64,000 nucleotides of DNA from Candidatus Micrarchaeota archaeon (GTDB lineage Archaea > Micrarchaeota > Micrarchaeia > Anstonellales > Bilamarchaeaceae): the NCBI GenBank assembly GCA_964490215.1, contig CAZBAM010000002.1, forward strand, positions 12,403-76,402, given 5' to 3'. The notes under the pieces are model-generated. The model was given only the letters and a program-made list of their open reading frames with translations, was not told the origin of the DNA and made no database searches. A program made the translations under genes and the position numbers. Of this stretch, positions 11,262-52,571 are shown in pieces (the stretch's first letter is position 1; each line of letters begins with the position of its first letter).

Positions 11262-12179
11262 TTAGAGCATCTGGCCTACGCTTTCCGCGAAGCTTATCCT
11301 GGGCTTCCACCCGGTGTCCTTCGTTATCTTCGTGGTGCTTCCGTAGGCGTCCGGCACCTCGTTTTTCCTGATGCGCGCCGGGTCGGCCTTTATCTCCGCG
11401 CGGACGCCCGCCTGTTTCATCATCAGTTCGAGCAGCTCGCCCATGCGGTGCGACTTGCCGGTGCAGACGTTGTAGATTTCGCCGGATTTCCCGCGCTCGG
11501 CTATTGCGAGGAACGCGCGCGAAGCGTCCTCCATGTCTATGAAGTCGCGTTTCGCCTCAAGGTTGCCGACGAGTACCGGGCCCTGCCCCTTGCCGTTCGC
11601 TATTTCAGCCACCTGTTTCGCGAAGGAGCCTGGCGCCATGCGTTCAGGCACCCCTCGCCCGAGCGGGTTGAACAGCCGTCCCGCAGTCACCTCGCAGCCC
11701 AGCGCTGTATAGCCTGCTGCAATCGCCGTGCGCGCGGCCATGGACATGCCGTAGCGCGTGATCGGCTTCGGCATCCTCGTTTCCCTGAGCGGCAGGTCCT
11801 TTTTCTCCACCGCGCCGTATTCGGCCGCGGAGCCGATTACGAAGACGCGGGGCCGTTTCCCGCCTTCCTGCAGCTTCACCACGGCCTCAAGCACTGCCAC
11901 GGCGGTCTGCACGTTCGCCCTCAACAGTTCGTTCCAGTCTGACGCGCCCGGGGCGCCTGCGAAATGGAATATGAAATCCGGCCTGGCCTCGGCGACGAGC
12001 GACGCAGCGGCAGCGAAGTCCGCGACATCCGCCTTCCTGTATTCAAAGCCCGGGGCGCTGAGCGTGCACTCGCCCTGCCCTGCCCCCACGATGCGCGAGC
12101 CAGGCCGTTCCTTCACCAGCAGGTCCACGAAATTCCTGCCCACGAACCCGCACGCACCAGTCACCAGATAATCAGCCAT
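11262..12179 (-). CDS. SDR-family NDP-6-deoxyhexose 4-reductase, Rmd-like (GDP-4-keto-6-deoxy-D-mannose reductase-like)
   Basis: MADYLVTGACGFVGRNF...; C-terminal IYNVCTGKSHRMGELLE...DTGWKPRI mirrors Rmd architecture. Confidence 0.45.
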   Translation of the reverse strand: MADYLVTGACGFVGRNFVDLLVKERPGSRIVGAGQGECTLSAPGFEYRKADVADFAAAASLVAEARPDFIFHFAGAPGASDWNELLRANVQTAVAVLEAVVKLQEGGKRPRVFVIGSAAEYGAVEKKDLPLRETRMPKPITRYGMSMAARTAIAAGYTALGCEVTAGRLFNPLGRGVPERMAPGSFAKQVAEIANGKGQGPVLVGNLEAKRDFIDMEDASRAFLAIAERGKSGEIYNVCTGKSHRMGELLELMMKQAGVRAEIKADPARIRKNEVPDAYGSTTKITKDTGWKPRISFAESVGQML

Positions 12180-12207
12180 TCAAACGCCCTTCCTCGTACA
12201 ATTCGTC

Positions 12208-12927
12208 TTACTCCTTGAGATATTTCTCCGGGTGCTCTTCCATCTCCTTCTGCGCCAGCTCGTAGTCGTCCGGCCTGCCTATGTCCAGCCACTCGCATCT
12301 GTCCCTGAAGCAGCAGACTGTCTCGCCCTTTTTCCTGAGCCTGAGCATCAGGTCAGGCATGCCCAGCGCCTCGCCTTTCTTTATGCTGGCCAGCGCCTTC
12401 CTGTTGAGCGCGTTCACGCCCATGCTGACCAGGAACGGCATCGTGGGCTTCTCAACATAATCCTTCAGCTTCATATCCCCGTCCGCGGTTATGACGCCGT
12501 AGTCTATCTTCTGCACGCGCTCAAACACGCCTATGGTGGCCGTCGCTTTCCTGTCCTTGTGGAATTTCATCAGCTTCCCGTAATCAAGCGTGGTGAGGAT
12601 GTCGCCGTTTATAACCAGGAAGTCCTCGTCAAGGCGTATGCCCGCGCCTTCCATGATGCCGAGCGCGCCGGCGGTGTTGAGCGGTGTCTCCTCCCGCACG
12701 TATCTTATCTTCACGCCGAGATTTTCACCGTCGCCGAAATATGCCTCTATCAGCCCTGCGAGGTGGCCGGTGGATATGACGATGTCCACGAACCCGGCCT
12801 TCTTCAGCTGGTGGATGACGATTTCAAGTATGGGCTTATCGCCCAATGGAACGAGCGGCTTCGGGAACGTGGCGGTGTACGGCCTCAGCCTCGTCCCCTT
12901 CCCACCCGCGAGTATTATCGCCTGCAT
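12208..12927 (-). CDS. Sugar-1-phosphate nucleotidyltransferase (mannose-1-P guanylyltransferase / glucose-1-P cytidylyltransferase-like)
   Basis: MQAIILAGGKGTRLRPYT...KPLVPLGDKPIL, the classic NTP-transferase signature. Confidence 0.65.
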   Translation of the reverse strand: MQAIILAGGKGTRLRPYTATFPKPLVPLGDKPILEIVIHQLKKAGFVDIVISTGHLAGLIEAYFGDGENLGVKIRYVREETPLNTAGALGIMEGAGIRLDEDFLVINGDILTTLDYGKLMKFHKDRKATATIGVFERVQKIDYGVITADGDMKLKDYVEKPTMPFLVSMGVNALNRKALASIKKGEALGMPDLMLRLRKKGETVCCFRDRCEWLDIGRPDDYELAQKEMEEHPEKYLKE

Positions 12928-38658: not shown

Positions 38659-39375
38659 ATGTACGGTGTTTCTCCCCAGGCATATGACAGAGCGATTACG
38701 GTATTCAGCCCTGACGGCAGGCTTTTCCAGGTGGAATACGCCAAGGAGGCGGTCAAGCGCGGTGCGACAGCCGTCGGCATAACCGCCAAGGACGGCGTGG
38801 CCCTGGTTGCGTTCAAGTCCATCCACACGAAGCTCGTCGTCCCGGAATCGCTCAAGAAGGTGTTCCAGGTTGATTCTCACATCTGCGTCACGGCCAGCGG
38901 CCTCATCGCGGACGCGCGCAGGCTGGTGGACGTGGCGAGGGTGGACGCCCAGCGCCACCGCATCACCTACAACGAGATGCCGACCGTGGAGTCCATAGCC
39001 CGCAGCGTGTGCGACCTGATGCAGGTCTATACGCAATACGGCGGAATCCGGCCGTTCGGCGTGTCGCTGCTCATCGCCGGCGTGGACGCGCAGGGCCCGA
39101 AGCTGTTTGAGGCAGAGCCCAGCGGCGCCATGACAGCCTACAAGGCCGATTCAATCGGCGCGAACAAGAAGGAAGTGGACGACATCCTGGAGAAGAGCTA
39201 CAAGGACACGCTCACCGTGGAAGAGGCGATAAAAATCGCGCTTGAGGCGATCCGCACCACGCAGGAGGAGAAGCTCCAGGCTGAGAACGTGGAGATATCC
39301 TACATCCCGATAAAGCCCAAGAAGGCGCTGACGCTTTCGGACAAGGAAGTCGCGAAATACCTGAAGGGCGCGTGA
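38659..39375 (+). CDS. psmA: Proteasome subunit alpha
   Basis: MYGVSPQAYDRAITVFSPDGRLFQVEYAKEAVKRG, canonical alpha-subunit N-terminus. ORF 38650 starts at GTG; ATG at 38659 with gaggtg SD-like motif and tttataaata TATA upstream. Confidence 0.8.
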   Translation: MYGVSPQAYDRAITVFSPDGRLFQVEYAKEAVKRGATAVGITAKDGVALVAFKSIHTKLVVPESLKKVFQVDSHICVTASGLIADARRLVDVARVDAQRHRITYNEMPTVESIARSVCDLMQVYTQYGGIRPFGVSLLIAGVDAQGPKLFEAEPSGAMTAYKADSIGANKKEVDDILEKSYKDTLTVEEAIKIALEAIRTTQEEKLQAENVEISYIPIKPKKALTLSDKEVAKYLKGA

Positions 39376-39377
39376 AT
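39345..39377 (+). repeat. 33-bp direct repeat copy 1 (3' end of psmA including stop codon)
   Basis: ggaagtcgcgaaatacctgaagggcgcgtgaat; second copy at 40733..40765 with 1 mismatch. Confidence 0.7.
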
Positions 39378-39443
39378 CCTTTCGTTTCCTGTTTTGGCGT
39401 TGCCAGGCTTGGTTTTGTGTCTATATGCCCCTACAAGGGCATA

Positions 39444-39473: not shown

Positions 39474-40703
39474 ATGGCAATCCCGACCAAGAACGAAATA
39501 ATGGATTTCTCGCCGATAAACAAAGGTGGAATCGAGAACGTCCCGGAATACCGGCGAACTGCATTCAGGGAAATAGGCACGGCGCTGGATACCGGATTCA
39601 TAGTTGCGATAACCGGCCTGCGCAGGGTCGGAAAGACCACCCTGATAAAGCAGACGCTGGGAAAGAATTCATTCTATTTCTCCTTTGACGAAAAAAGATA
39701 CGCCAATCCTGACGCGCTCAGGCAGGTGATTGAAACATTCGTGAAAGAGGGCGAAAGGCCCCTCATCGCCCTGGACGAGGTGTTCAGGGTCGGGGACTGG
39801 TCCGGTTTGATAAAGCGGTACCACGACCAGAAACTGGCGCGTTTCATAGTGAGCGGATCCTCGGCGCTGGGAGTAAAGAAGGGGGTTGAAAGCCTGGCCG
39901 GAAGGATGGTGGAGAGGTACATCCAGCCTCTCAGGTTTGAAGAATACCTGGAACTTGGGGGCGAAAAGCCCGAAAGGCCTGGGCTTGCGGACCTGTTCAG
40001 GAAAGCAAAGCGGCATGAAGCCGGGTTGGAGTCGTTCCTCAGGCGCGGCTCGTTCCCTGAACTGGCCGGAAGGAAGGAAATTGATGCAACGGAGTACATA
40101 CGGACCAGTACGGTGGAAAAAATCGTATTTGACGACATACCCTCTATTTTTAAGATAGAGAATCCTTCCAAGCTGTACGACCTGTTCCGGCTGTGTGCTA
40201 CGAATTCCTCACGGCTTTTCACAGAGGTTAATCTCGCCGAGGCGCTCCAGATGGGCAGGCACGCGGTTTCGGATTACCTCCTTTATCTCCGAAAGGCGTA
40301 CCTCCTGGACGTCGTCTATCCCCAGGGGTCTCTCCAGAAGGCGCTCAAGAAGCAGAAGAAGGTCTTCGCAAAGACGGCGAGCATCTATAACGCGATTGCC
40401 GAGAACCCGAATGCCGGCCAGGCTGCCGAAACTGCGGTTTTTGACAAGCTTTCCGGTTCCGGGCCGTCATTCTACAGGGACGCGCAGAAAAGGGAGGTTG
40501 ATTTCATCTCCTCCGTCCCCATAGAAGTGAAATTCCAGTCCATCGTCCTGCGCAGTGATATAGAGAACCTCATTTATTATGCGAAAAGGCGGAAGGCAGG
40601 GAAAGCCATAGTCGTGACCGAAAACCTTTTTGATGAGAAAGATTACGACGGAGTGACCGTTACCTTCATCCCCCTGGACGTTTTCCTGCTGTTGAAGTTG
40701 TAA
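39474..40703 (+). CDS. AAA-domain ATPase with C-terminal DUF4143 (archaeal ATPase family)
   Basis: Walker A ITGLRRVGKTTL; Walker B LIALDEV; C-terminal DUF4143-like region. Confidence 0.6.
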   Translation: MAIPTKNEIMDFSPINKGGIENVPEYRRTAFREIGTALDTGFIVAITGLRRVGKTTLIKQTLGKNSFYFSFDEKRYANPDALRQVIETFVKEGERPLIALDEVFRVGDWSGLIKRYHDQKLARFIVSGSSALGVKKGVESLAGRMVERYIQPLRFEEYLELGGEKPERPGLADLFRKAKRHEAGLESFLRRGSFPELAGRKEIDATEYIRTSTVEKIVFDDIPSIFKIENPSKLYDLFRLCATNSSRLFTEVNLAEALQMGRHAVSDYLLYLRKAYLLDVVYPQGSLQKALKKQKKVFAKTASIYNAIAENPNAGQAAETAVFDKLSGSGPSFYRDAQKREVDFISSVPIEVKFQSIVLRSDIENLIYYAKRRKAGKAIVVTENLFDEKDYDGVTVTFIPLDVFLLLKL

Positions 40704-40732: not shown

Positions 40733-40765
40733 GGAAGTCGCGAAATACCTGAAGGGCTCGTGAAT
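40733..40765 (+). repeat. 33-bp direct repeat copy 2 (displaced psmA 3'-end remnant, encodes ...EVAKYLKGS*) followed by a T-rich terminator-like tract
   Basis: ggaagtcgcgaaatacctgaagggctcgtgaat then tttcgctttcactcttttctgacttttttt. Confidence 0.7.
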
Positions 40766-40811
40766 TTTCGCTTTCACTCTTTTCTGACTTTTTTTGTAGA
40801 TTGACGAAAGC

Positions 40812-41492: not shown

Positions 41493-41538
41493 GGTATGAT
41501 TGCCCTGCTGATTTTAAAAAGCATGGGCACACGCGGCG

Positions 41539-41675
41539 CTGTAGAAAAGCTCATGCGCCTTGCCGGGCTAGTCTTATCCTAGCCTCTGGACGCCCTTTGG
41601 GCACGGGACCCACCATCCCTTCGGGATGGTTCCCCCGTGCCTGTTCATGGAGGCATTTCTTATGGGATTTCTACA
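41539..41675 (+). repeat. Structured MITE-like repeat, copy A (about 137 nt; terminal inverted repeats CTGTAGAAA...TTTCTACAA; internal UUCG-capped hairpin)
   Basis: About 93% identical to the reverse complement of 49632..49828 apart from a 55-nt indel and a 10-nt patch. Confidence 0.55.
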
Positions 41676-41711
41676 AAGCCGGCACGTGCCACCGCTTTTC
41701 GGCCGCCAGGC

Positions 41712-42413
41712 CTAGTCTATGCTCTCCAAAAACCTGACCGCGAGCTCCTCAATCCTGTCGTCTGTCGCGATGCCCTCAAATGGGTCGTCGGGCGTCACTA
41801 TGTTCACGGTCACTATGTTCGCGCCGTTGAAGGAGGCGCTCTGCGCCTGCTTGAGGTCTATGCCCCCTGCCACTGAAATCAGCACGTCGTACTTGCTCCT
41901 CACCCGCTTGACGTGGACGTATCTTATGACCGTGGAATAGGTGCTCTCCTCGTCCCTTCCCCTGTGCAGGACGACCACACGTGGCGGCTTCTTCAGCCTC
42001 AGCAGCACGCGCAGCGGGTCCGCCACGCCGAGCATGTCTATGAAGGAGTCCATGCCCGCATCCTCACATGTCCTGATGAACAGGTCAAGCGTTTCCTTCG
42101 GCGCAGCGCCGCACACGGTCGCGCCGTTCGCCCCTGCCCCGGCGGCCTCCGCAGCCTCCTCTACCGCGCCGTCCATGGTCTTGATGTCAGCGACGACGTA
42201 GCCCGGCCACATGGCACGTATGAAGCGTATGGCCCTGTCCCCCTCGCGCTTTATGTACGGGGTCCCGGCCTCCACGAGAATCCGCTGGTCGCGCGGTATG
42301 CGGGGCAGCAGCCTTGAGGCCACTGAGGAGTCCTGGTTGAACGCCAGCTGGAGATACCTGTTCCTGGCATTTAGCTCCATCTCAATCCTTCTTCCTGCCG
42401 AGGAGCGTGTCAA
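41712..42413 (-). CDS. 3-hexulose-6-phosphate synthase-like (OMP-decarboxylase fold, ribulose monophosphate pathway)
   Basis: VADIKTMDGA...GGIDLKQA, comparable to HPS ADMKTMDAG...GGVKV. Confidence 0.5.
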   Translation of the reverse strand: MTRSSAGRRIEMELNARNRYLQLAFNQDSSVASRLLPRIPRDQRILVEAGTPYIKREGDRAIRFIRAMWPGYVVADIKTMDGAVEEAAEAAGAGANGATVCGAAPKETLDLFIRTCEDAGMDSFIDMLGVADPLRVLLRLKKPPRVVVLHRGRDEESTYSTVIRYVHVKRVRSKYDVLISVAGGIDLKQAQSASFNGANIVTVNIVTPDDPFEGIATDDRIEELAVRFLESID

Positions 42414-43158
42414 CTACCTTGCCGTAGTCGCTGGGCAGGAAGAGCACGATTTTCTCGGACGGGTCAGCGGCAATGTCCCTTATGGTCTGGAGCGTCCTCA
42501 GGTGGATGGCAGCCGGGGATTTGGACAGGTTCTCAGACGCCTTCCTCAGGTTCTCGGACGCCTGCAGCTCGCCCTCGGACACTATGACGGTCGCCCTCCG
42601 TTCCCTCTCTGCCTCGGCCTGCTTGGCCATGGCCCTTTTCATCTCAGACGGAAGCTCAATCTCCTGGATTTTTATCGCGGATATGTCCACGCCCCACTCG
42701 GACGTCTCGGCATCCACGATTTTCTTTATTCCCTGCGCGATCTTCTCCCTTTCCGTGAGCACGAAGTCCAGTTCGCTGTTGCCCACGACGTCGCGGAGCG
42801 CGGTCTGGGTATATTGCCTGACGGCGAAGTCAAAGTTCTGTATTTTCAGGATCGCATCCTCTAGTTTCTCCACCTTGTAATAGACGACGGTGTTGACGAG
42901 GACCGGTATGTTGTCCTTGGTTATGACCTCCTGCTTGGGCACGTCCGCTGTCATGATGCGCATGTCAACCACGCGCAACTCCTGGATCCAGGGTATGACA
43001 ATCGTTACGCCCGGCCCGACGGTGTGCACGTACTTGCCGAGCTGGAACAGTATGCCGGCCTGGTACTGCATGAGCACCCGTATGGAGCCGAAAAGGCCAA
43101 ACCCGACCAATATGACTATTGGCAATCCACAGAACGTGATGATGTCTTCTACCGCCAT
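42382..43158 (-). CDS. SPFH/band-7 (stomatin/prohibitin-like) membrane protein
   Basis: N-terminal TM then SPFH domain (...ITKDNIPVLVNTVVYYKV...); internal ATG 43158 (ORF to 43221). Confidence 0.65.
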   Translation of the reverse strand: MAVEDIITFCGLPIVILVGFGLFGSIRVLMQYQAGILFQLGKYVHTVGPGVTIVIPWIQELRVVDMRIMTADVPKQEVITKDNIPVLVNTVVYYKVEKLEDAILKIQNFDFAVRQYTQTALRDVVGNSELDFVLTEREKIAQGIKKIVDAETSEWGVDISAIKIQEIELPSEMKRAMAKQAEAERERRATVIVSEGELQASENLRKASENLSKSPAAIHLRTLQTIRDIAADPSEKIVLFLPSDYGKVVDTLLGRKKD

Positions 43159-43209
43159 GGCACACACATTCCCTCTCAATTTTATAAGTCTATCGTCCAT
43201 TCTATTGCC

Positions 43210-43764
43210 ATGGCACTTCACATCGGCATAGACAAGATAGAGAAAAAGCTTTCAGGGATGGAAAAGGAGATGGACGCGGTGCTGACCGGTAACCGGCTCA
43301 CTGTCCGCTCGTGTTCCAACGCCATAAAGGCGCTGCACGCCCACGACATCGCCGAGGCGAAGAAATCCCTTGCCGAGGCTGAGGATGGCCTGGGGAAGAT
43401 AGCGAAATACCACGACCACTTCCCGGGACAGCTTGACCACGTCTACCAGGAATACGCAGAGGCGCGCATAGTCATGTCAGCCATAGAGCTGAAGAAAATC
43501 CCGTCCATCGGCGAGCTGAAGGTGCCTGAAGTCCCGTATCTCAACGGGCTGCTGGACGCCATAGGGGAGCTGAAGAGAGAGATGTACGAGTCGCTCAGGC
43601 GGGGCAACAGGCACGAGGCAGGCGAATACTTCAAGATGATGGAGGAGATTTACGACGAGCTGCTCCCATTGCGCTTCTCCAATGCCATCCTGCCGGAGTT
43701 CAGGAGGAAGCAGGACGTGGGCCGCATGCAGATAGAGCAGGCGAGAGGGGAACTGCTTCCCTGA
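43210..43764 (+). CDS. Translin-family protein
   Basis: Helical protein with ...VPYLNGLLDAIGELKREMYESLRRG..., typical of archaeal translin. ATG 43210 inside ORF 43024; TATA-like caattttataag about 28 nt upstream. Confidence 0.45.
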   Translation: MALHIGIDKIEKKLSGMEKEMDAVLTGNRLTVRSCSNAIKALHAHDIAEAKKSLAEAEDGLGKIAKYHDHFPGQLDHVYQEYAEARIVMSAIELKKIPSIGELKVPEVPYLNGLLDAIGELKREMYESLRRGNRHEAGEYFKMMEEIYDELLPLRFSNAILPEFRRKQDVGRMQIEQARGELLP

Positions 43765-43785
43765 CGCTATGAAGAGAGTGCCGGG

Positions 43786-44172
43786 ATGGGAATGAAAATT
43801 GAACCACGCCTTGCCGAGGGAAAATACTATTTCGCCACCGTGGAAGAATCGCAACTGATGGCCATCACCGGCTATCTGGGCAGCGTGGCCGCGATTTTCC
43901 GCGAAACTGAAGGTCTTACAGTGGTCGTTTCCGAAGACGCCAAAGACGGCATTGCCGGCCTAAGCAGGAAGAAGCTCCAGGGCCCATTCGCACTCATAAC
44001 GCTCGGTGCGCAGACCGACCTTTACCTGGTCGGCTTCCTGGCTAAAATCACCGAAGCGCTCGCAAAAGAGAAAATAGCCGTGAATGCCTTCTCTGCATAT
44101 TTCCACGACCACCTTTTTGTGCCCTATGAGAGAAAAGAAGACGCGTTGCGCGTGCTCGGCAAGCTCGTCTGA
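43786..44172 (+). CDS. Small ACT-domain-like protein
   Basis: About 128 aa, beta-alpha-beta-beta-alpha-beta pattern; no strong signature. Confidence 0.3.
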   Translation: MGMKIEPRLAEGKYYFATVEESQLMAITGYLGSVAAIFRETEGLTVVVSEDAKDGIAGLSRKKLQGPFALITLGAQTDLYLVGFLAKITEALAKEKIAVNAFSAYFHDHLFVPYERKEDALRVLGKLV

Positions 44173-45048
44173 CTACCATTTGCTCTGGAAAATGCCCGCT
44201 ATCCTGAGTTTCTGGTTGCTGGCGTCCACGATTACTATCTGCTCCCCCTTTTCAAACGCCAGCGGCTGCGACAGCGTGATGTCGCTGTCGTTAAGCGTGC
44301 CTTCCACATACTGCATGTTGGTGTAGGCGTGTATCTTCCCCTTCAGCTCGTCCCTGAAGAACGGGCTCTTGGAGAACCTGCCGTTGACCACGTTGCTTAC
44401 CTCGTAGTCGTTGCGCATTGGTGCGAGTATGCCCCTCTCAAACGGTTCGCCGCTGAATACAAGCGAGACGTGCGCGCCCGCAGCCGCCTCGTCAGCCTCC
44501 TGCCCGCAGACCTGCAGGCTCCTGACCTCTATCTCCTTCTTCTCAGGCAGCGCGAACAGCCTGTCCTGCTTGCTGATTTTCCCAGACTTGACGACGCCGT
44601 GTGCGACGTGGCCGAGCGATTTCACCTGCTCTGCCTTGTGGATTAGCGCGATTACCTGCTCGCCTGCTGCTTCTGGCTGGAGCGCCTTCACCTTCGCCGC
44701 GGCAGCTGCCAGGTCAGGCATCTTCTCGTACCTGTCCAGCACAGTGCCGCCTATGGGCAGCGGGACGTTGGACACTATCACGCCCTTGTCAAGCCTGATG
44801 CTGTTGAGCGCTATTATCAGTTCGCCCACCTTCGGGCTTAGCCCGTCCACGAGCAGGACCGCGTAGTCAGCCATGGACAGCGCATAGAGGAGCGGCTGTA
44901 TCTTCTCGGGATAATTAGTCGGCTCCACCAGCGTTATGCCGGCCTCGCACGGATAAAATGTCAGCTCGTCCTTCGCAGCTTCCTTCCCTGCCAGCTTGCA
45001 GAACTGCTCCCTTAATTCCGGCTTGTCCGATAATACGGCAACCAGCAT
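44173..45048 (-). CDS. EF-Tu/EF-1alpha-like beta-barrel-domain protein lacking a canonical P-loop (GTPase-dead paralog?)
   Basis: Internal ATG 45048 with adjacent ggtgggagg SD-like motif; C-terminal domains resemble EF-Tu domains 2 and 3; no GxxxxGK(S/T). Confidence 0.3.
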   Translation of the reverse strand: MLVAVLSDKPELREQFCKLAGKEAAKDELTFYPCEAGITLVEPTNYPEKIQPLLYALSMADYAVLLVDGLSPKVGELIIALNSIRLDKGVIVSNVPLPIGGTVLDRYEKMPDLAAAAAKVKALQPEAAGEQVIALIHKAEQVKSLGHVAHGVVKSGKISKQDRLFALPEKKEIEVRSLQVCGQEADEAAAGAHVSLVFSGEPFERGILAPMRNDYEVSNVVNGRFSKSPFFRDELKGKIHAYTNMQYVEGTLNDSDITLSQPLAFEKGEQIVIVDASNQKLRIAGIFQSKW

Positions 45049-45174
45049 CCTCCCACCTCGGAATATACTGGACGGAAAGGGATTTAACCCGTGGCACGCA
45101 GCTGGCCCCACCAGTGCCCTTTTTATTGGTTTTGTGTCAAAGTCCGTGTATTCTATGTAAGAGGAGGGATAGTC

Positions 45175-46035
45175 ATGATACCTACAGTCAAGCCGCTTAG
45201 GGAACGTTATGGAGAAGTGGACAGGCTCACCGCCGGCTACAGGAAGTCCATAAAATCTCATGACCTGCTCGTGGAGCCTGTTTTCAAGGCATGCAGGTTC
45301 AATTTCTCCAGGAGTAGGACGACTATGCTGGATGCCATGTCAGGGCCGGGCGGCCTGGGCCTGGAACTGCTGGCTATGTTTGACCGGCAGCGCCCGCGAG
45401 GCAATACCAGCGAGCTTGCGATTATATTCAATGACGTGCGCAAGGAATCAATCCAGCAGATTCTCGGTGCTTTCTCGGCTTCCTTCGGCACTTTCAATTT
45501 TGATGTTTGCGAGGTTAACGCCCCCACATGTACGTTGCCTTTCAATGTGGCAGCAATGCGCTACGGGCTCACAGAGTTGACAAAAAATGACCAGGAAGCC
45601 GCACTCAAGGCCATCTACAACTGCCTTCTTCCAGGCGGAAGGCTTGTAGTCGCTGACATGACCGCTTATAATTTCTGGCAGCAGGATGGCATCACAAGGG
45701 TGCATTCCGCAAGGCAGGGGCTTGCGGGCAGGGACGTGGAGAAAGAGGGCATATGTCATATTCCGACTATTAACGAATGGACATCGCTCGCCTTCGGTGC
45801 AGGCTTTGTGAACGTTGCCATCGCATTCACCGGTACCAATGACGTGTCTGTTTCCCAGTGGGCAGGCGAGTTCGATGACGGTCCAGAGCAGAAAATCCGC
45901 ACTATGAACCGCATAATCAAAGAAACGGCTGAGGGGAACGAGTCCTTCAAGAACGGGTGCGCGGTGGAGTTCGGCCACGCGGGTGCGAGTCTGAAACTTC
46001 CAGTTATTGTCCTCACAGGGGACAAACCTGCATGA
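45175..46035 (+). CDS. Class I SAM-dependent methyltransferase (paralog 1 of a tandem pair)
   Basis: LDAMSGPGGLGLELL; LPGGRLVVADM; gaggaggg SD-like motif upstream of ATG 45175. Confidence 0.45.
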   Translation: MIPTVKPLRERYGEVDRLTAGYRKSIKSHDLLVEPVFKACRFNFSRSRTTMLDAMSGPGGLGLELLAMFDRQRPRGNTSELAIIFNDVRKESIQQILGAFSASFGTFNFDVCEVNAPTCTLPFNVAAMRYGLTELTKNDQEAALKAIYNCLLPGGRLVVADMTAYNFWQQDGITRVHSARQGLAGRDVEKEGICHIPTINEWTSLAFGAGFVNVAIAFTGTNDVSVSQWAGEFDDGPEQKIRTMNRIIKETAEGNESFKNGCAVEFGHAGASLKLPVIVLTGDKPA

Positions 46036-46057
46036 TGTGCAGGAGAGGCACAATACC

Positions 46058-46801
46058 ATGATGAAAACAAGGTTACGTCGTGAATCCTCCTGCCCTAGCC
46101 CCTTCAAGTCCCCCCGGGTCTTAGACTTCAACAAATCCACCTATGGCTTTGCCCCGCTTCTGGAGCATGTTTTCAAGGCGTGCGATTTCCAGAAGCTCGC
46201 AATCCGGCCGGCCGTGGATTTCCTGGATGCCATGTCAGGCTCAGGAACGCTCGGGCTTGCCATCAGGGAAAAGGTCAAGGCGGCCATGGCGGATAAGTTC
46301 CATCATTTCGCATTCTATTTCAACGACGTCGCTGAGGCGCCGCTGGCAAAGCTGAGAGAGACCGCGCTAATCGCGCACCGTGACATCTGCGACATAGGCA
46401 CGCGCTTCCCTGACACTTTCCACGTAGTCGCCATGCAGAATGGCATCGTTGACCTGCCAAAAGAGCGCCAGCTCCAGGCATTTCGCTCTATTTACGACTC
46501 CATGAAGCCTGGCGGAAGGCTCGTGGTGGCTGACCTGGCTTCATTGGACGAGCAGCAACAGAGTTATTTATCCTCCTTACATTTCGTTTCCGGCACGTCT
46601 GCGGCAGCCGCCCCCAGGACCCATGAGGCATACATCCCTCTCATGAAAGAATGGCACGACCTTCTCAAGTCTGCAGGCTTTAGGGAGGCTGAGTTGCCGA
46701 TTAGTGAGTTCACAATCTACTTCAGTGGTGGCACGAACAACACAGCCGTGAGATATCCGGCGATAGTCCTAGCAGCTGACAAGCCATATCCAACGGAATG
46801 A
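46058..46801 (+). CDS. Class I SAM-dependent methyltransferase (paralog 2 of the tandem pair)
   Basis: LDAMSGSGTLGLAI; MKPGGRLVVADL; aggagagg SD-like motif upstream. Confidence 0.45.
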   Translation: MMKTRLRRESSCPSPFKSPRVLDFNKSTYGFAPLLEHVFKACDFQKLAIRPAVDFLDAMSGSGTLGLAIREKVKAAMADKFHHFAFYFNDVAEAPLAKLRETALIAHRDICDIGTRFPDTFHVVAMQNGIVDLPKERQLQAFRSIYDSMKPGGRLVVADLASLDEQQQSYLSSLHFVSGTSAAAAPRTHEAYIPLMKEWHDLLKSAGFREAELPISEFTIYFSGGTNNTAVRYPAIVLAADKPYPTE

Positions 46802-46848
46802 ACAGCACAATCGTGAGATATCTACTCGCAGGGAACAAGCCCGCGTAA

Positions 46849-48147
46849 TCAGAGGCTTTTCCCTATCAGCGCAGCCAGTTCCTTTTTCCTCGCTTCAAGC
46901 TTTTCCTTCGCCTTGTACTCCATCGTCAGCCGGACAATCGGCTCAGTCCCTGACGCCCGGATGAGGAACCAGCCGTCTTCCTCGTCAACGCGCACCCCGT
47001 CGTCGCTCCTGACTTCCCCCGTTATCCCGCTGGCCCTGACCGCCTTCACTATCCTCTCCATGGCAGCCTGCCTGTCGTGCGCAGGGAACTTCTCCCTTGC
47101 CATGAAATGCTGAGGGTAGCGTGCCTTGAGCTTTGAGAACCTGCCGTCCACGCAGAATATCTCCGCGAACTTCGCTGCCGCAAGCACCGCGTCAGGCACG
47201 TGCACCCCGCCCGCATAAATATACTCGCCGCACGGCTCGCCGCCGAAAAGCGCCTCTTGCCGTTCAAGCTCGTCGGCGACGAACGTGCTCCCGACCGGCG
47301 TTATCGCGATTTTCCCGCCCGCGCGCTTCACCGCGTCACTGACAGCCAGCGAGGCCTCCAGCGTGGAGACGATTTTTTTGTTCTTTGAGGACGCGAGCTC
47401 GTGCTCCATCATCATCGCGAGCTGGGCGTCCAGCGGCAGCATCGTCCCGGTCTCGTCAAAAACGACGCACCGGTCGCCGTCGCCGTCGTGGGCTATCGCG
47501 AAGTCCGCGCCGGCTGACCTGACTATGCCGCCGAGGTAGGAAAGGTTCTTCTCGTTCGGCTCCGAGGGCCTCGCGAACCCCTCCAGCGAGGCATTGACGC
47601 TCACCACCACGCAGCCAAGGTCTGAGAGCAGGGACGGGGTTATCACGGCCGCAGCGCCGTTGCAGTCCACAACGATTTTCGGCTTCTTACGCGCTATGGC
47701 TTCGCAGTCCACCAGGCCCATGACCATCGCCTTGTGCCTGTCCACCGCTTCCGGGTCAGTGCCCTTGCGGCCCGGCGTCCTACCCATCCTGAAATGGCTT
47801 TCCCTGTACGCCTGGGTTATCTCCTTCTCAAGGGCCTTGCCTATCTCCTTGCCCTTCTCCATGAGCTTGAGGCCGTTGTATTCAGGCGGGTTGTGGGACG
47901 CGGTCACCATTATGCCCCGGTTCGGGTAAATGGCGACCGTCGGGGTGGGCACTATGCCGAGGTCCACCACGTCCGCCCCGGATGCGAGCGCGCCGGCTGC
48001 TACGGCCTCCATCAGCGGCACGCCGCTTTCCCTTATGTCCCTTCCGGCCACCAGCGTGCCTGAGGCGAATATGTTCGCTATCTTGAGTGCAAGGCCTTCG
48101 GTGATATCCTGGCCGTAGATGCCTCTGATGCCTGAAGTGCCGAACAT
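46849..48147 (-). CDS. glmM: Phosphohexomutase (phosphoglucosamine/phosphomannomutase family)
   Basis: MFGTSGIRG...; active-site TASHNPPEYNGLK; ATG 48147 internal to ORF 46849..48516. Confidence 0.7.
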   Translation of the reverse strand: MFGTSGIRGIYGQDITEGLALKIANIFASGTLVAGRDIRESGVPLMEAVAAGALASGADVVDLGIVPTPTVAIYPNRGIMVTASHNPPEYNGLKLMEKGKEIGKALEKEITQAYRESHFRMGRTPGRKGTDPEAVDRHKAMVMGLVDCEAIARKKPKIVVDCNGAAAVITPSLLSDLGCVVVSVNASLEGFARPSEPNEKNLSYLGGIVRSAGADFAIAHDGDGDRCVVFDETGTMLPLDAQLAMMMEHELASSKNKKIVSTLEASLAVSDAVKRAGGKIAITPVGSTFVADELERQEALFGGEPCGEYIYAGGVHVPDAVLAAAKFAEIFCVDGRFSKLKARYPQHFMAREKFPAHDRQAAMERIVKAVRASGITGEVRSDDGVRVDEEDGWFLIRASGTEPIVRLTMEYKAKEKLEARKKELAALIGKSL

Positions 48148-49582
48148 GGAGATAATCACTAACGGAAACCTATTTATTCCTTCTATGCGAGGGACAGCCA
48201 GAGGTGGTTTCTTGTCTGCCATAGATGATGTCCTGAAATATATCGCCACCAACGAGATACGGTGGATAGACTTGCAGTTCTTTGACGTAAAGGGCCTGAT
48301 GCACCGCGTCAGCCTGTCCAACAGGAAAATTGAGGAGTCCAGCTTCGGCGCAGGCGTGTCCGCCGCTGACCTCACCGAGGTTTTCGGCCCGAGCGAGCAG
48401 GGTGACCTGGTGCTGCTTCCGGACCCGGACACGCTCGCCAGGCTTCCATGGGAGCCGGCCACGGTCCGCCTCGTATGCGACATACTCGCGGCCGCGAAGA
48501 AGGAGCGGTTCCTCAAGGATCCGCGCTACGTCGCCGAGAGGCTGGAGACCAGCCTCGGGGCCGCAGGCATAAAGAACGCGCTTATCGGCGCTGAGGCCGA
48601 CTGCTACATATTTGACACCGCGAGCGCGGACAAGACCACCCGCGGCAGGGGAACCGGCGTCATCATGGACTCGCGCGAGGCCAGGTGGGGGCCGTCCCCG
48701 CTTTCCAACGAGACGCGCGGCGCCTACGTGGCCACGCCCTACGACTCCATGTATTCCGCGAGGACCCAGATATGCGAGACCATGGAGGACAGCTTCGGCA
48801 TGCTGGTGGATTCGCACCGGCACGGCAGGTCACCCACGTCCCAGCAGACGTTTGAGCTTGCCGAGCGGGGCCTGAAATCCGCAGCCGACGCGCTCAACAC
48901 GCTGAAGTTCATCACCAGGAACCTCGCCACGGCCGTGAACGCCTCGGCCACCTTCATGCCATACCCGGTGGAAGGCGAAAAGGGCAACGCGCTGAACGTC
49001 GCGGTGAGCCTCTGGAAGACCGGCGACCAGAACCTCTTCTACGACGGCAAGGAGGAATACGGCCAGCTCAGCCAGGCAGGCAGGTACTACGTCGGCGGCC
49101 TGCTGGAGCACGCGGCCGCGCTCTCGCTGTTCACCGCGCCAACGCCGAACTCCTACCGCAGGCTGGCAGCCGATAACAGGAAGGCCGGCTGGAGCGCTGC
49201 GAGGAAGGACTGCCTCGTTTACGTCCCCTGTGCCAAGCGGAACGTCAAGGAGACCAAGAGGGTTGTCTATGCAGGCGCAGACCCGTCAGCCAACCCCTAC
49301 CTGGCGTATGCGGCCGTGGTGGCCGCGGGCCTTGACGGCATAAAAAGCAAGATAGACCCAGGGGAACCTGTGGAGACAGAGGGCAGGAAAGCCAGGGTGC
49401 AGAAGGCCCTGCCCGGCAGCCTCGGCGAGGCTTCGGCAGCGCTGCAGAGCGACGTGAAGTTCCTCAAGGGCGTGGTTCCGGTTGAGCTCATGGGAGACTT
49501 CATAGAGCTGAAGGAAAGGCAGCACAAGGAATCGCTGAAGGGCGTGACCGCGCTGGAGCTCCAGAAATACTACAACGTCTGA
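48146..49582 (+). CDS. glnA: Glutamine synthetase family protein
   Basis: N-terminal beta-grasp (IRWIDLQFFDVKG); catalytic-domain NSYRRL motif. ATG 48146 is divergent and base-adjacent to the glmM-like start. Confidence 0.65.
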   Translation: MEIITNGNLFIPSMRGTARGGFLSAIDDVLKYIATNEIRWIDLQFFDVKGLMHRVSLSNRKIEESSFGAGVSAADLTEVFGPSEQGDLVLLPDPDTLARLPWEPATVRLVCDILAAAKKERFLKDPRYVAERLETSLGAAGIKNALIGAEADCYIFDTASADKTTRGRGTGVIMDSREARWGPSPLSNETRGAYVATPYDSMYSARTQICETMEDSFGMLVDSHRHGRSPTSQQTFELAERGLKSAADALNTLKFITRNLATAVNASATFMPYPVEGEKGNALNVAVSLWKTGDQNLFYDGKEEYGQLSQAGRYYVGGLLEHAAALSLFTAPTPNSYRRLAADNRKAGWSAARKDCLVYVPCAKRNVKETKRVVYAGADPSANPYLAYAAVVAAGLDGIKSKIDPGEPVETEGRKARVQKALPGSLGEASAALQSDVKFLKGVVPVELMGDFIELKERQHKESLKGVTALELQKYYNV

Positions 49583-49612
49583 TTTTCTTTTTTCCCTTTT
49601 ATGTTCTTGTTC
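49583..49612 (+). terminator. Oligo-T archaeal terminator after glnA
   Basis: tgattttcttttttcccttttatgttcttg immediately after the stop. Confidence 0.45.
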
Positions 49613-49631
49613 CCCTCGTCCAGTGCCCGGT

Positions 49632-49828
49632 CTTTGCAGAAATCCCACAAGAAATGCCTCCATGAACCGGCACGGGGGAACCATCCCGAAGGGATGGTGG
49701 GTCCGGCAGAACGGCGCACCGTTCTGTGGACCAGTGAATGACGCCTCATTCACCCGGTCCCGTGCCCAAAGGGCGTCCTTACATCCTGAATAAGACTAGC
49801 CCGGCACGGCGCATGAGTTTTTCTACAG
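49632..49828 (-). repeat. Structured MITE-like repeat, copy B (about 197 nt; same family as 41539..41675 in inverted orientation, with an extra two-hairpin 55-nt module)
   Basis: Reverse complement aligns end-to-end with copy A; terminal inverted repeats TTGCAGAAAT...TTTCTACAG. Confidence 0.55.
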
Positions 49829-49876
49829 AGCCGCGCCCACAAAGCCATAAAAACCGGCGTCAGTTAAATATCCTCA

Positions 49877-50050
49877 GGGCCCATAGTCGAGTTCCGCCTT
49901 TTGGAAAAAGCGTTGCCGCAATCTCGCGGCAACATTTGACGCTCAAAGCGTCAAAGGCGGCCCAAAACTTATTGTTTAGGGCATGACGACAATGGTTAAG
50001 ACGTCGCTCTTACACAGCGAAGATCCCCAGTTCGATCCTGGGTGGGCCCA
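49877..50050 (+). tRNA. tRNA-Val (anticodon UAC) interrupted by an approximately 100-nt intron/insertion in the D-loop (between positions 17 and 18; 5' exon 49877..49893, 3' exon 49994..50050)
   Basis: 5' exon GGGCCCAUAGUCGAGUU (acceptor, U8, A14, G15). 3' exon GGUUAAGACGUCGCUCUUACACAGCGAAGAUCCCCAGUUCGAUCCUGGGUGGGCCCA: anticodon stem-loop with UAC, 5-nt variable loop, T-arm CCCAG-UUCGAUC-CUGGG, perfectly complementary 7-bp acceptor, discriminator A. The intervening 100 nt contains two perfect hairpins closed by CCGCC/GGCGG. Confidence 0.5.
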
Positions 50051-52004: not shown

Positions 52005-52571
52005 TTGTCTAAAAAACCGGATTTTGTAATCACCAACATGGTGGCATCAGCCTCTCTCGGCCTTGAGTTGGACCTCTACGCGCTGGCCAGCAAGATAAAG
52101 GAGATAGAATACGAGCCGGAGCAGTTCCCCGGCGCCATACTCAAGTTCAAGGAGCCCAAGGCATCGCTCCTGCTCTTCAAGAACGGCAAGGTGGTCTGCG
52201 TCGGCTGCAAGCAGCGCATTCTCATAGAGAGGACGATAGACAAGACCATAAAGATGCTCACGCCATACGCCAAGAGGATAAACAGCACCAAGAAGCCCAA
52301 GATAGACATAACCAACATCGTGGCATCGGCCAATCTGGGGCTTGAGCTTGACCTCTACAAGATAGCCTCCAAGCTCAAGGACGTGGAATACGAGCCGGAG
52401 CAGTTCCCCGGCGCCATACTCAAGTTCAAGGAGCCAAAGGCCTCCCTGCTGCTTTTCAAGAACGGCAAGGTCATCTGCGCCGGTGCCAAGAACGAGAAGG
52501 AGATAAGGATAGTGCTGGACAAGGCCAAGAGGCTGCTCAGGCCGTATGCCGAGAAGGCAAGGCAGGGGTAG
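52005..52571 (+). CDS. tbp: TATA-box-binding protein
   Basis: Two tandem TBP repeats (ITNMVASASLGLELDLY... and ITNIVASANLGLELDLY...); apparent TTG start at 52005 preceded by an SD-like motif (first ATG at 52038). Confidence 0.8.
   Translation: MSKKPDFVITNMVASASLGLELDLYALASKIKEIEYEPEQFPGAILKFKEPKASLLLFKNGKVVCVGCKQRILIERTIDKTIKMLTPYAKRINSTKKPKIDITNIVASANLGLELDLYKIASKLKDVEYEPEQFPGAILKFKEPKASLLLFKNGKVICAGAKNEKEIRIVLDKAKRLLRPYAEKARQG

Follow-up and report, generated by a model that had tools for sequence, protein, structure and literature searches.

Several families of short bacterial repeats, namely, the Correia elements of Neisseria, ERIC, and the pneumococcal BOX elements, are structured, modular, MITE-like units, of which a single genome contains tens to hundreds of copies. 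They are about 100 to 200 bp long, have inverted ends, form stable folds when transcribed, and come in size variants produced by optional internal modules. The class to which a MITE is assigned rests on the homology of its inverted repeats to those of a transposase-encoding element (PMC7002104).

The two elements in this report, A and B, lie in inverted orientation at the ends of an 8-kb block within a 64-kb stretch of DNA from a Micrarchaeota (DPANN) archaeon, the whole of which we call the window. The initial annotation had offered two readings, namely, a family of MITEs or a gene for a small structured RNA that occurs twice. We regard A and B, with a probability of roughly 0.85, as copies of a MITE related to an insertion sequence (IS) of the IS5 family, because their ends are identical to those of such an IS, their sites are optional, and members of the family are present in other genomes. 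The MITE half of the earlier alternative is supported by the IS5-family ends, the other members, and the empty sites; no known RNA family in Rfam matched.

The inverted pair in the window

A repeat search of the window returned three inverted blocks, with 93 to 100% complementarity, joining positions 41532-41678 to 49632-49835, and the inverted pair previously described at both ends of the 8-kb block is therefore real. A and B were the only copies found in a whole-window repeat scan, and a search of the window for a 37-nt core motif gave exactly two matches, with zero expected. Outside a 56-nt block found only in B, the two are ~92 to 95% identical, in keeping with the ~93% first given; when that block is left out of the alignment, the mean column identity is 95%, and the mismatches are concentrated in the loop of the second hairpin.

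The positions of the features are listed in Table 1. The location assigned to the copies in the initial annotation was right, and their exact limits have been revised, the units now being delimited by the match to the IS ends discussed below. The inverted repeats pair as GGCGCTGTAGAAA / TTTCTACAAAGCC in A and as GGCTCTGTAGAAA / TTTCTGCAAAGACC in B. A terminal helix (CTGTAGAAA/TTTCTACA), a second helix (GGCACGGG/CCCGTGCC), and a UUCG-capped hairpin, all proposed earlier, are present in the predicted minimum-energy folds. Both copies (146 bp for A and 204 bp for B) are within the size limit of ~500 bp for MITEs. Neither has coding capacity, and the open reading frames that overlap them are due to chance only.

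Table 1. Positions in the window of the two putative MITE copies and of their parts
Feature	Position	Strand	Remarks
Copy A (putative MITE), short form without the two-hairpin module	41535..41680	+	146 bp; 171 bits with model R1
Left terminal inverted repeat of A, GGCGCTGTAGAAA	41535..41547	+	12/13 match to L045 IS end GGCTCTGTAGAAA
Right terminal inverted repeat of A, TTTCTACAAAGCC	41668..41680	+	14-nt identity (ATTTCTACAAAGCC) to the other L045 IS end
Conserved hairpin P2 of A, GGGC-UA-GUCU ... GGAC-GCCC	41565..41595	+	best-conserved part of the family
Helix P3 of A, GGCACGGG/CCCGTGCC, around UUCG-capped hairpin 41612-41630	41600..41641	+	
Copy B (putative MITE), long form	49629..49832	-	204 bp; 130 bits with model R1
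Left terminal inverted repeat of B, GGCTCTGTAGAAA	49820..49832	-	13/13 match to L045 IS end
Right terminal inverted repeat of B, ATTTCTGCAAAGACC	49629..49643	-	1 substitution and 1 inserted base
Two-hairpin module in P3 of B, 56 nt	49700..49755	-	direct repeat GGACC on both sides
Conserved hairpin P2 of B	49771..49802	-	

An IS5-family element with the same ends

A candidate partner for these copies is present on contig L045, which comes from a different, distantly related Micrarchaeota genome. The contig had been fetched for another purpose. Here the inverted repeat GGCTCTGTAGAAA / TTTCTACAAAGCC surrounds a gene for a protein of 305 aa, and the complete unit of 1029 bp is flanked by an 8-bp direct repeat, ACCCTAGG, which is its target duplication. 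The protein scores 142.7 bits with the NCBIfam model NF033579 (IS5 family transposase; cut-off, 140) and 28.7 bits with the Pfam model DDE_Tnp_1 (PF01609; cut-off, 23), and the genes most closely related to it on plasmids are archaeal and carry the annotation of IS5 family transposase. The element may belong to the ISH1-type subgroup of the IS5 family (ISfinder), in which the target duplication is 8 bp.

The left end of B agrees with one end of this IS at 13 of 13 positions, and the right end of A agrees with the other at 14 of 14. These matches are side-specific, the left-hand variant being CTCTG and the right-hand one CTTTG...AAAT in IS and MITE alike. The similarity of A and B to the L045 IS is limited to these 13 to 14 terminal bases and ends there exactly. 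No IS with ends of the A/B type was found within the 64-kb window.

The flanks differ among the copies of the family. L009, a copy from another genome, is bordered by an exact 8-nt direct repeat, TCCGCCGA, equal in length to the duplication around the L045 IS (p ~0.03, uncorrected). The flanks of A and B contain no clean 8-bp duplication, only imperfect and slightly offset GGCAC / GGGCRC repeats; no 8-bp target duplication was found in the flanks of L036, and a possible A-rich flanking repeat, matching at 7 of 8 positions, can be picked out by eye at L037.

Further members of the family

The third member, L009, was found with R1, a covariance model built from the core of A and B; it lies in another MAG, where glnA follows 85 nt downstream. 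The features that A, B, and L009 have in common were used to draw up the search pattern GCCGGNCTAGTCTT...GGACGNCCTT, with which two more members, L036 and L037, were found in a metagenome collection; in the whole of this collection, the pattern that all five copies satisfy had only two matches. A second model, R2, was built without L009, which was held out as a test, and it recovered L009 at 50 bits but nothing further in ~710 kb of Micrarchaeota DNA; L009 apart, ~650 kb of other Micrarchaeota loci gave no copy. Exact 21-mers of A and B had no match in the genome or metagenome collections, nor did a scan of viral contigs with a P2 pattern give any match. The check for further copies put forward in the initial annotation thus finds no third copy in the window and homologues (L009, L036, and L037) in other Micrarchaeota. 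The inverted repeats are weaker in L009 and are weak or absent in L036 and L037.

The two-hairpin module of B is also found in L037, with compensatory changes in both hairpins, and it must therefore be considered a feature of the family. The earlier description of this module as an extra block was correct as to its existence, now measured at 56 nt, and incorrect in treating it as a private addition to B. B and L037 represent a long form, with the module in P3. Most likely, A, the short form, lost the module by deletion between the flanking GGACC repeats.

Genomic setting and empty sites

The GlnA protein of the window has relatives only among Candidatus Micrarchaeota MAGs, the closest being 87% identical. 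Around it, the block AAK-(HPS-Band7)-Translin-EF-Tu-domain protein-PGM-(purF)-GlnA-tRNA-Val-DUF655 is strongly conserved over 35 Micrarchaeota loci. A occupies the intergenic spacer from AAK to HPS and B that from glnA to tRNA-Val, each copy running antisense to the adjoining genes. All copies of the family are intergenic, and their orientation relative to the adjoining genes differs from copy to copy. The tRNA-Val(UAC) gene starts at 49877, ~45 nt from B, as the earlier placement of B close upstream of an interrupted tRNA-Val would have it. The interruption is an insertion of ~100 nt in the D-loop, and ARAGORN accepts the gene only after this insertion is removed.

For each of the five copies, related genomes have an empty spacer at the corresponding position. 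The AAK|HPS spacer, the site of A, measures 220 nt in the window and ~45 nt in L011. The purF|glnA spacer holds the element in L009 and is short and element-free in L011 and L013. At the corresponding site of L036, ~120 to 135 extra bases lie between convergent stop codons that are only 2 nt apart in L040 and L041, which share 95% identity with L036 in the AsnC protein; likewise, L046, L047, and L048 lack the element at the L037 site. The closest relatives of the window, at 85 to 91% protein identity, contain no copies. This absence from the orthologous sites of close relatives is what would be seen with a mobile element; a cellular RNA gene should have been retained, at least among relatives as close as these. 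Two other ideas arose from the neighborhood of the copies. A link to nitrogen genes, suggested by the glnA, purF, and AsnC neighbors, was rejected because the orthologous sites are empty and because L009 was itself retrieved through glnA. A decayed copy in the glnA/tRNA-Val spacer of L005 was also considered and set aside; a single 29-nt hairpin is shared, and the global alignment, with a score of 63.5 against 51.4 +/- 6.9 for shuffles, does not rise above them.

Inversion of the hps-glnA segment between the copies had been suggested in the initial annotation, and gene order was compared accordingly. The genes within the A-B interval have the same order and orientation relative to the genes outside it as in the element-free relatives L011, L013, and L032, so that no inversion has taken place in the window genome. 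The inverted pair is a possible substrate for recombination in principle only.

The folded core

On either strand, both A and B fold much more stably than shuffled sequence (z-scores, -4 to -5). For B, the orientation given in the initial annotation is favored by 10 kcal/mol, and the same strand gives the better fold, by 1.5 to 10 kcal/mol, in all five copies. On this strand, G-U pairs outnumber A-C pairs by 18 to 2. The P2 stem is constant in the five copies except for one exchange of G-C for C-G, and the inner core as a whole (P2, the junctions, and the P3 base) is better conserved than the ends. P2 and the junctions have hardly changed from one lineage to another, in contrast to the ends, which have diverged; L009 and L036 have unrelated perfect hairpins in place of the P3 base. 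The core folds into a three-way junction. Of its 43 pairs, 13 are changed on both sides, as counted over four independent lineages in an alignment that was fitted to the structure. With this model-fitted alignment, none of 500 shuffles gave covariation as high as that observed, and slid controls were far lower.

Taken together, the conservation of the core, the covariation, and the strand bias hint at selection on an RNA or on a single-strand fold, although they fall short of proof. The same signals could equally be due to the small sample, to bias in the alignment, and to templated correction of the inverted repeats. We regard it as possible, though on the doubtful side, that the MITE carries a selected cargo, in the form of a three-way-junction RNA or single-strand fold whose P3 arm can expand. 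Such a fold may be kept for the element itself, for example, for transposition or control of the transposase, or it may be kept for use by the host.

Known RNA families and other structured elements were considered as sources of the fold. Searches of Rfam 15 with A and B, at gathering thresholds and permissively (E values up to 10), returned noise only, the match to int-alpA being 16 bits against a threshold of 35.8, so that the known families named in the initial annotation, such as SRP and RNase P RNA, give no match to A or B. On inspection, the motifs of 5S rRNA, SRP RNA, RNase P RNA, H/ACA RNAs, and C/D box RNAs are absent, as are those of a K-turn, a tRNA-like fold, and a glutamine riboswitch, and the ends do not form a bulge-helix-bulge intron motif. 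An integron attC-like site and an IS200/IS605 end were likewise rejected, because their motifs are lacking and because the ends match an IS of the DDE type.

Discussion

Of the readings that compete with a MITE, a small structured RNA gene, present as two paralogous copies with their own promoter and with only a secondary likeness to IS ends, has the most to draw on. It would account for the two-sided changes in 13 of the 43 pairs of the three-way junction (0 of 500 shuffles being equal), for the 18 to 2 excess of G-U over A-C on the given strand, for the advantage of 1.5 to 10 kcal/mol on one strand in five copies, and for the 50 bits with which a model lacking L009 finds L009; in addition, CTGTAG is preceded at ~23 nt by an A/T-rich box in both A and B. 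The pair counts, however, were taken from an alignment fitted to the structure, and the boxes are better assigned to the promoters of neighboring genes than to a promoter of the elements: that of A is the AAK promoter, which is also present in the element-free L011, and that of B, 26 nt upstream of the 5' end of tRNA-Val, is probably the tRNA-Val promoter, while L009 and L036 have no such box. Moreover, the ends of the supposed gene are IS5-family inverted repeats, Rfam offers no match, and it is conserved at no orthologous site, even where the neighboring AsnC is 95% identical. We consider an RNA gene of this kind unlikely.

The strand-biased folding and the conserved hairpins would also suit a single-strand element of the IS200/IS605 type (a PATE or a stand-alone TnpB guide RNA), recognized as folded ssDNA or RNA, as would the want of clean target duplications at A, B, and L036. 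Against this stand the terminal inverted repeats, which match a DDE-type IS5 element, the 8-bp duplication at L009, the left ends, which adjoin no common target motif, and the absence of a TnpA or TnpB gene nearby; this explanation we judge very improbable. Still harder to credit is the idea that a segment with a hairpin-rich spacer was duplicated locally on a single occasion, without mobility or function. This idea fits the presence of just two copies in the window, 8 kb apart, with similar short GGGCAC-like motifs in their flanks, but it is contradicted by the homologues L009, L036, and L037, which come from unrelated loci in no fewer than three other genomes or contigs of Micrarchaeota, and the ends match an IS.

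The MITE reading would thus have a short non-coding element with IS5-family terminal inverted repeats inserted into two intergenic spacers of a conserved block, and its movement would have been of the cut-and-paste kind, catalyzed by a DDE transposase supplied in trans. Such mobilization is something that we infer, as are the order in which the copies arrived and any role of the folded core. We note that several observations run against a plain MITE. No clean 8-bp duplication is seen at A, B, or L036, and the copy number is seemingly low, with two in 64 kb. The autonomous IS is known from a distant genome only and has no partner in the window, and the usual pattern of conservation is reversed, the inner core being better conserved than the ends.

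MITEs are themselves a known kind of element, and this family is a new one for Micrarchaeota. The mobile elements of DPANN archaea are poorly cataloged, and what is gained here is a defined family of MITEs, together with a candidate partner from the IS5 family and a working covariance model with which to look for more copies. Insertion of the element explains differences in spacer length within a highly syntenic Micrarchaeota block, and it carries a warning for annotation, that hairpin-rich inserts of this sort should not by default be called new RNA genes. Should the cargo reading be true, the family would represent a structured non-coding RNA module that is mobile in DPANN archaea, and not inert filler between transposase sites; with a selected core, this would be a rare archaeal case of a structured RNA module spread by a transposon.

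Relation to known elements

Like the archaeal MITEs described for Halobacterium salinarum (MITEHsal and ISH2; PMC7002104), A and B are short and non-coding, their terminal inverted repeats are homologous to the ends of an IS that encodes a transposase, and, in both cases, insertion is intergenic and optional among related genomes. They differ in that the host of A and B is a DPANN archaeon, in the lack of sequence similarity, in the low apparent copy number, and in an interior that is not free filler but folds into a conserved three-way junction.

The comparison with IS5-family elements rests on the L045 IS, with its 13-nt inverted repeats beginning with GGC, its 8-bp duplication, and its single DDE transposase; A and B have the ends of this element but not its transposase. 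In size range, inverted ends, stable folds, and an optional module, the A/B family resembles the Correia, ERIC, and BOX elements, from which it differs in being archaeal, seemingly rare, and more strongly conserved in its core than at its ends.

Interruption of tRNA-Val

The D-loop of the tRNA-Val(UAC) gene downstream of glnA is split by a hairpin-rich insert of ~100 to 104 nt, and ARAGORN detected the tRNA only when this insert was taken out. The orthologue in L008, a comparison locus, has an insert at the matching D-loop site together with an intron in the anticodon loop; the tRNA-Val of L011, a relative lacking the MITE, has the anticodon-loop intron only, and that of comparison locus L005 has neither. 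An ATAAAAA box lies upstream of the gene in the window, its center ~26 nt 5′ of the mature tRNA end, and this spacing would suit a transcription start at or adjoining that end. In two further Micrarchaeota genomes, represented by L011 and L005, small repeated units of the form GGRCCYGUUG-hairpin-CUUCSUKYCCA directly follow the tRNA-Val gene.

GAACGG/CCGTTC hairpins

Hairpins of the type GAACGG-N3-4-CCGTTC are far more numerous in the Micrarchaeota loci than chance predicts, the expectation by our own estimate being well under 1 per ~560 kb. The hairpin in the glnA/tRNA-Val spacer of L005 is 90% identical to MITE copy B across 29 nt, and the L008 tRNA intron contains one such hairpin.

Coordinates of features in the window and comparison loci
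Feature	Locus	Position	Strand	Remark
tRNA-Val(UAC), interrupted	window	49877-50050	+	ARAGORN after insert excised
D-loop insert	window	roughly 49890/49894-49993
ATAAAAA box	window	49847-49853	+
GAACGG-N3-4-CCGTTC hairpin	window	49709-49724		within module of copy B
Same	L004	12107-12149
Same	L005	11392-11407
Same	L008	2216-2230
Same	L011	12256-12271
Same	L017	17172-17187
Same	L029	824-839
Downstream repeat units	L011	about 12150-12330
Same	L005	about 11740-11790
51-nt direct repeat	window	39345-39395, 40733-40783		82% identical
AAA_14/DUF4143 ATPase gene	window	39474-40703
183-nt direct repeat	window	52029-52211, 52308-52490		83% identical; within ORF
HPS and Band7	window	41712-43221
IS6-family (DDE_Tnp_IS240) gene	L045	421-1596
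IS5-family element	L045	3038-4066

Other repeats, mobile elements, and gene content

The AAA_14/DUF4143 ATPase gene is flanked on both sides by the 51-nt direct repeat, and gene and repeats together look like an inserted cassette. The 183-nt repeat is probably an internal protein repeat of its ORF. The Micrarchaeota contig L045 carries both an IS6-family gene and the IS5-family element whose ends match those of the MITE, and a homologue of the gene neighboring the MITE of contig L037 lies within a few kilobases of both. HPS and Band7, between AAK and Translin, are absent from the closest relatives of the window (L001, L003, L038, and L039) and present in the window and in the more distant L011, L013, and L032.
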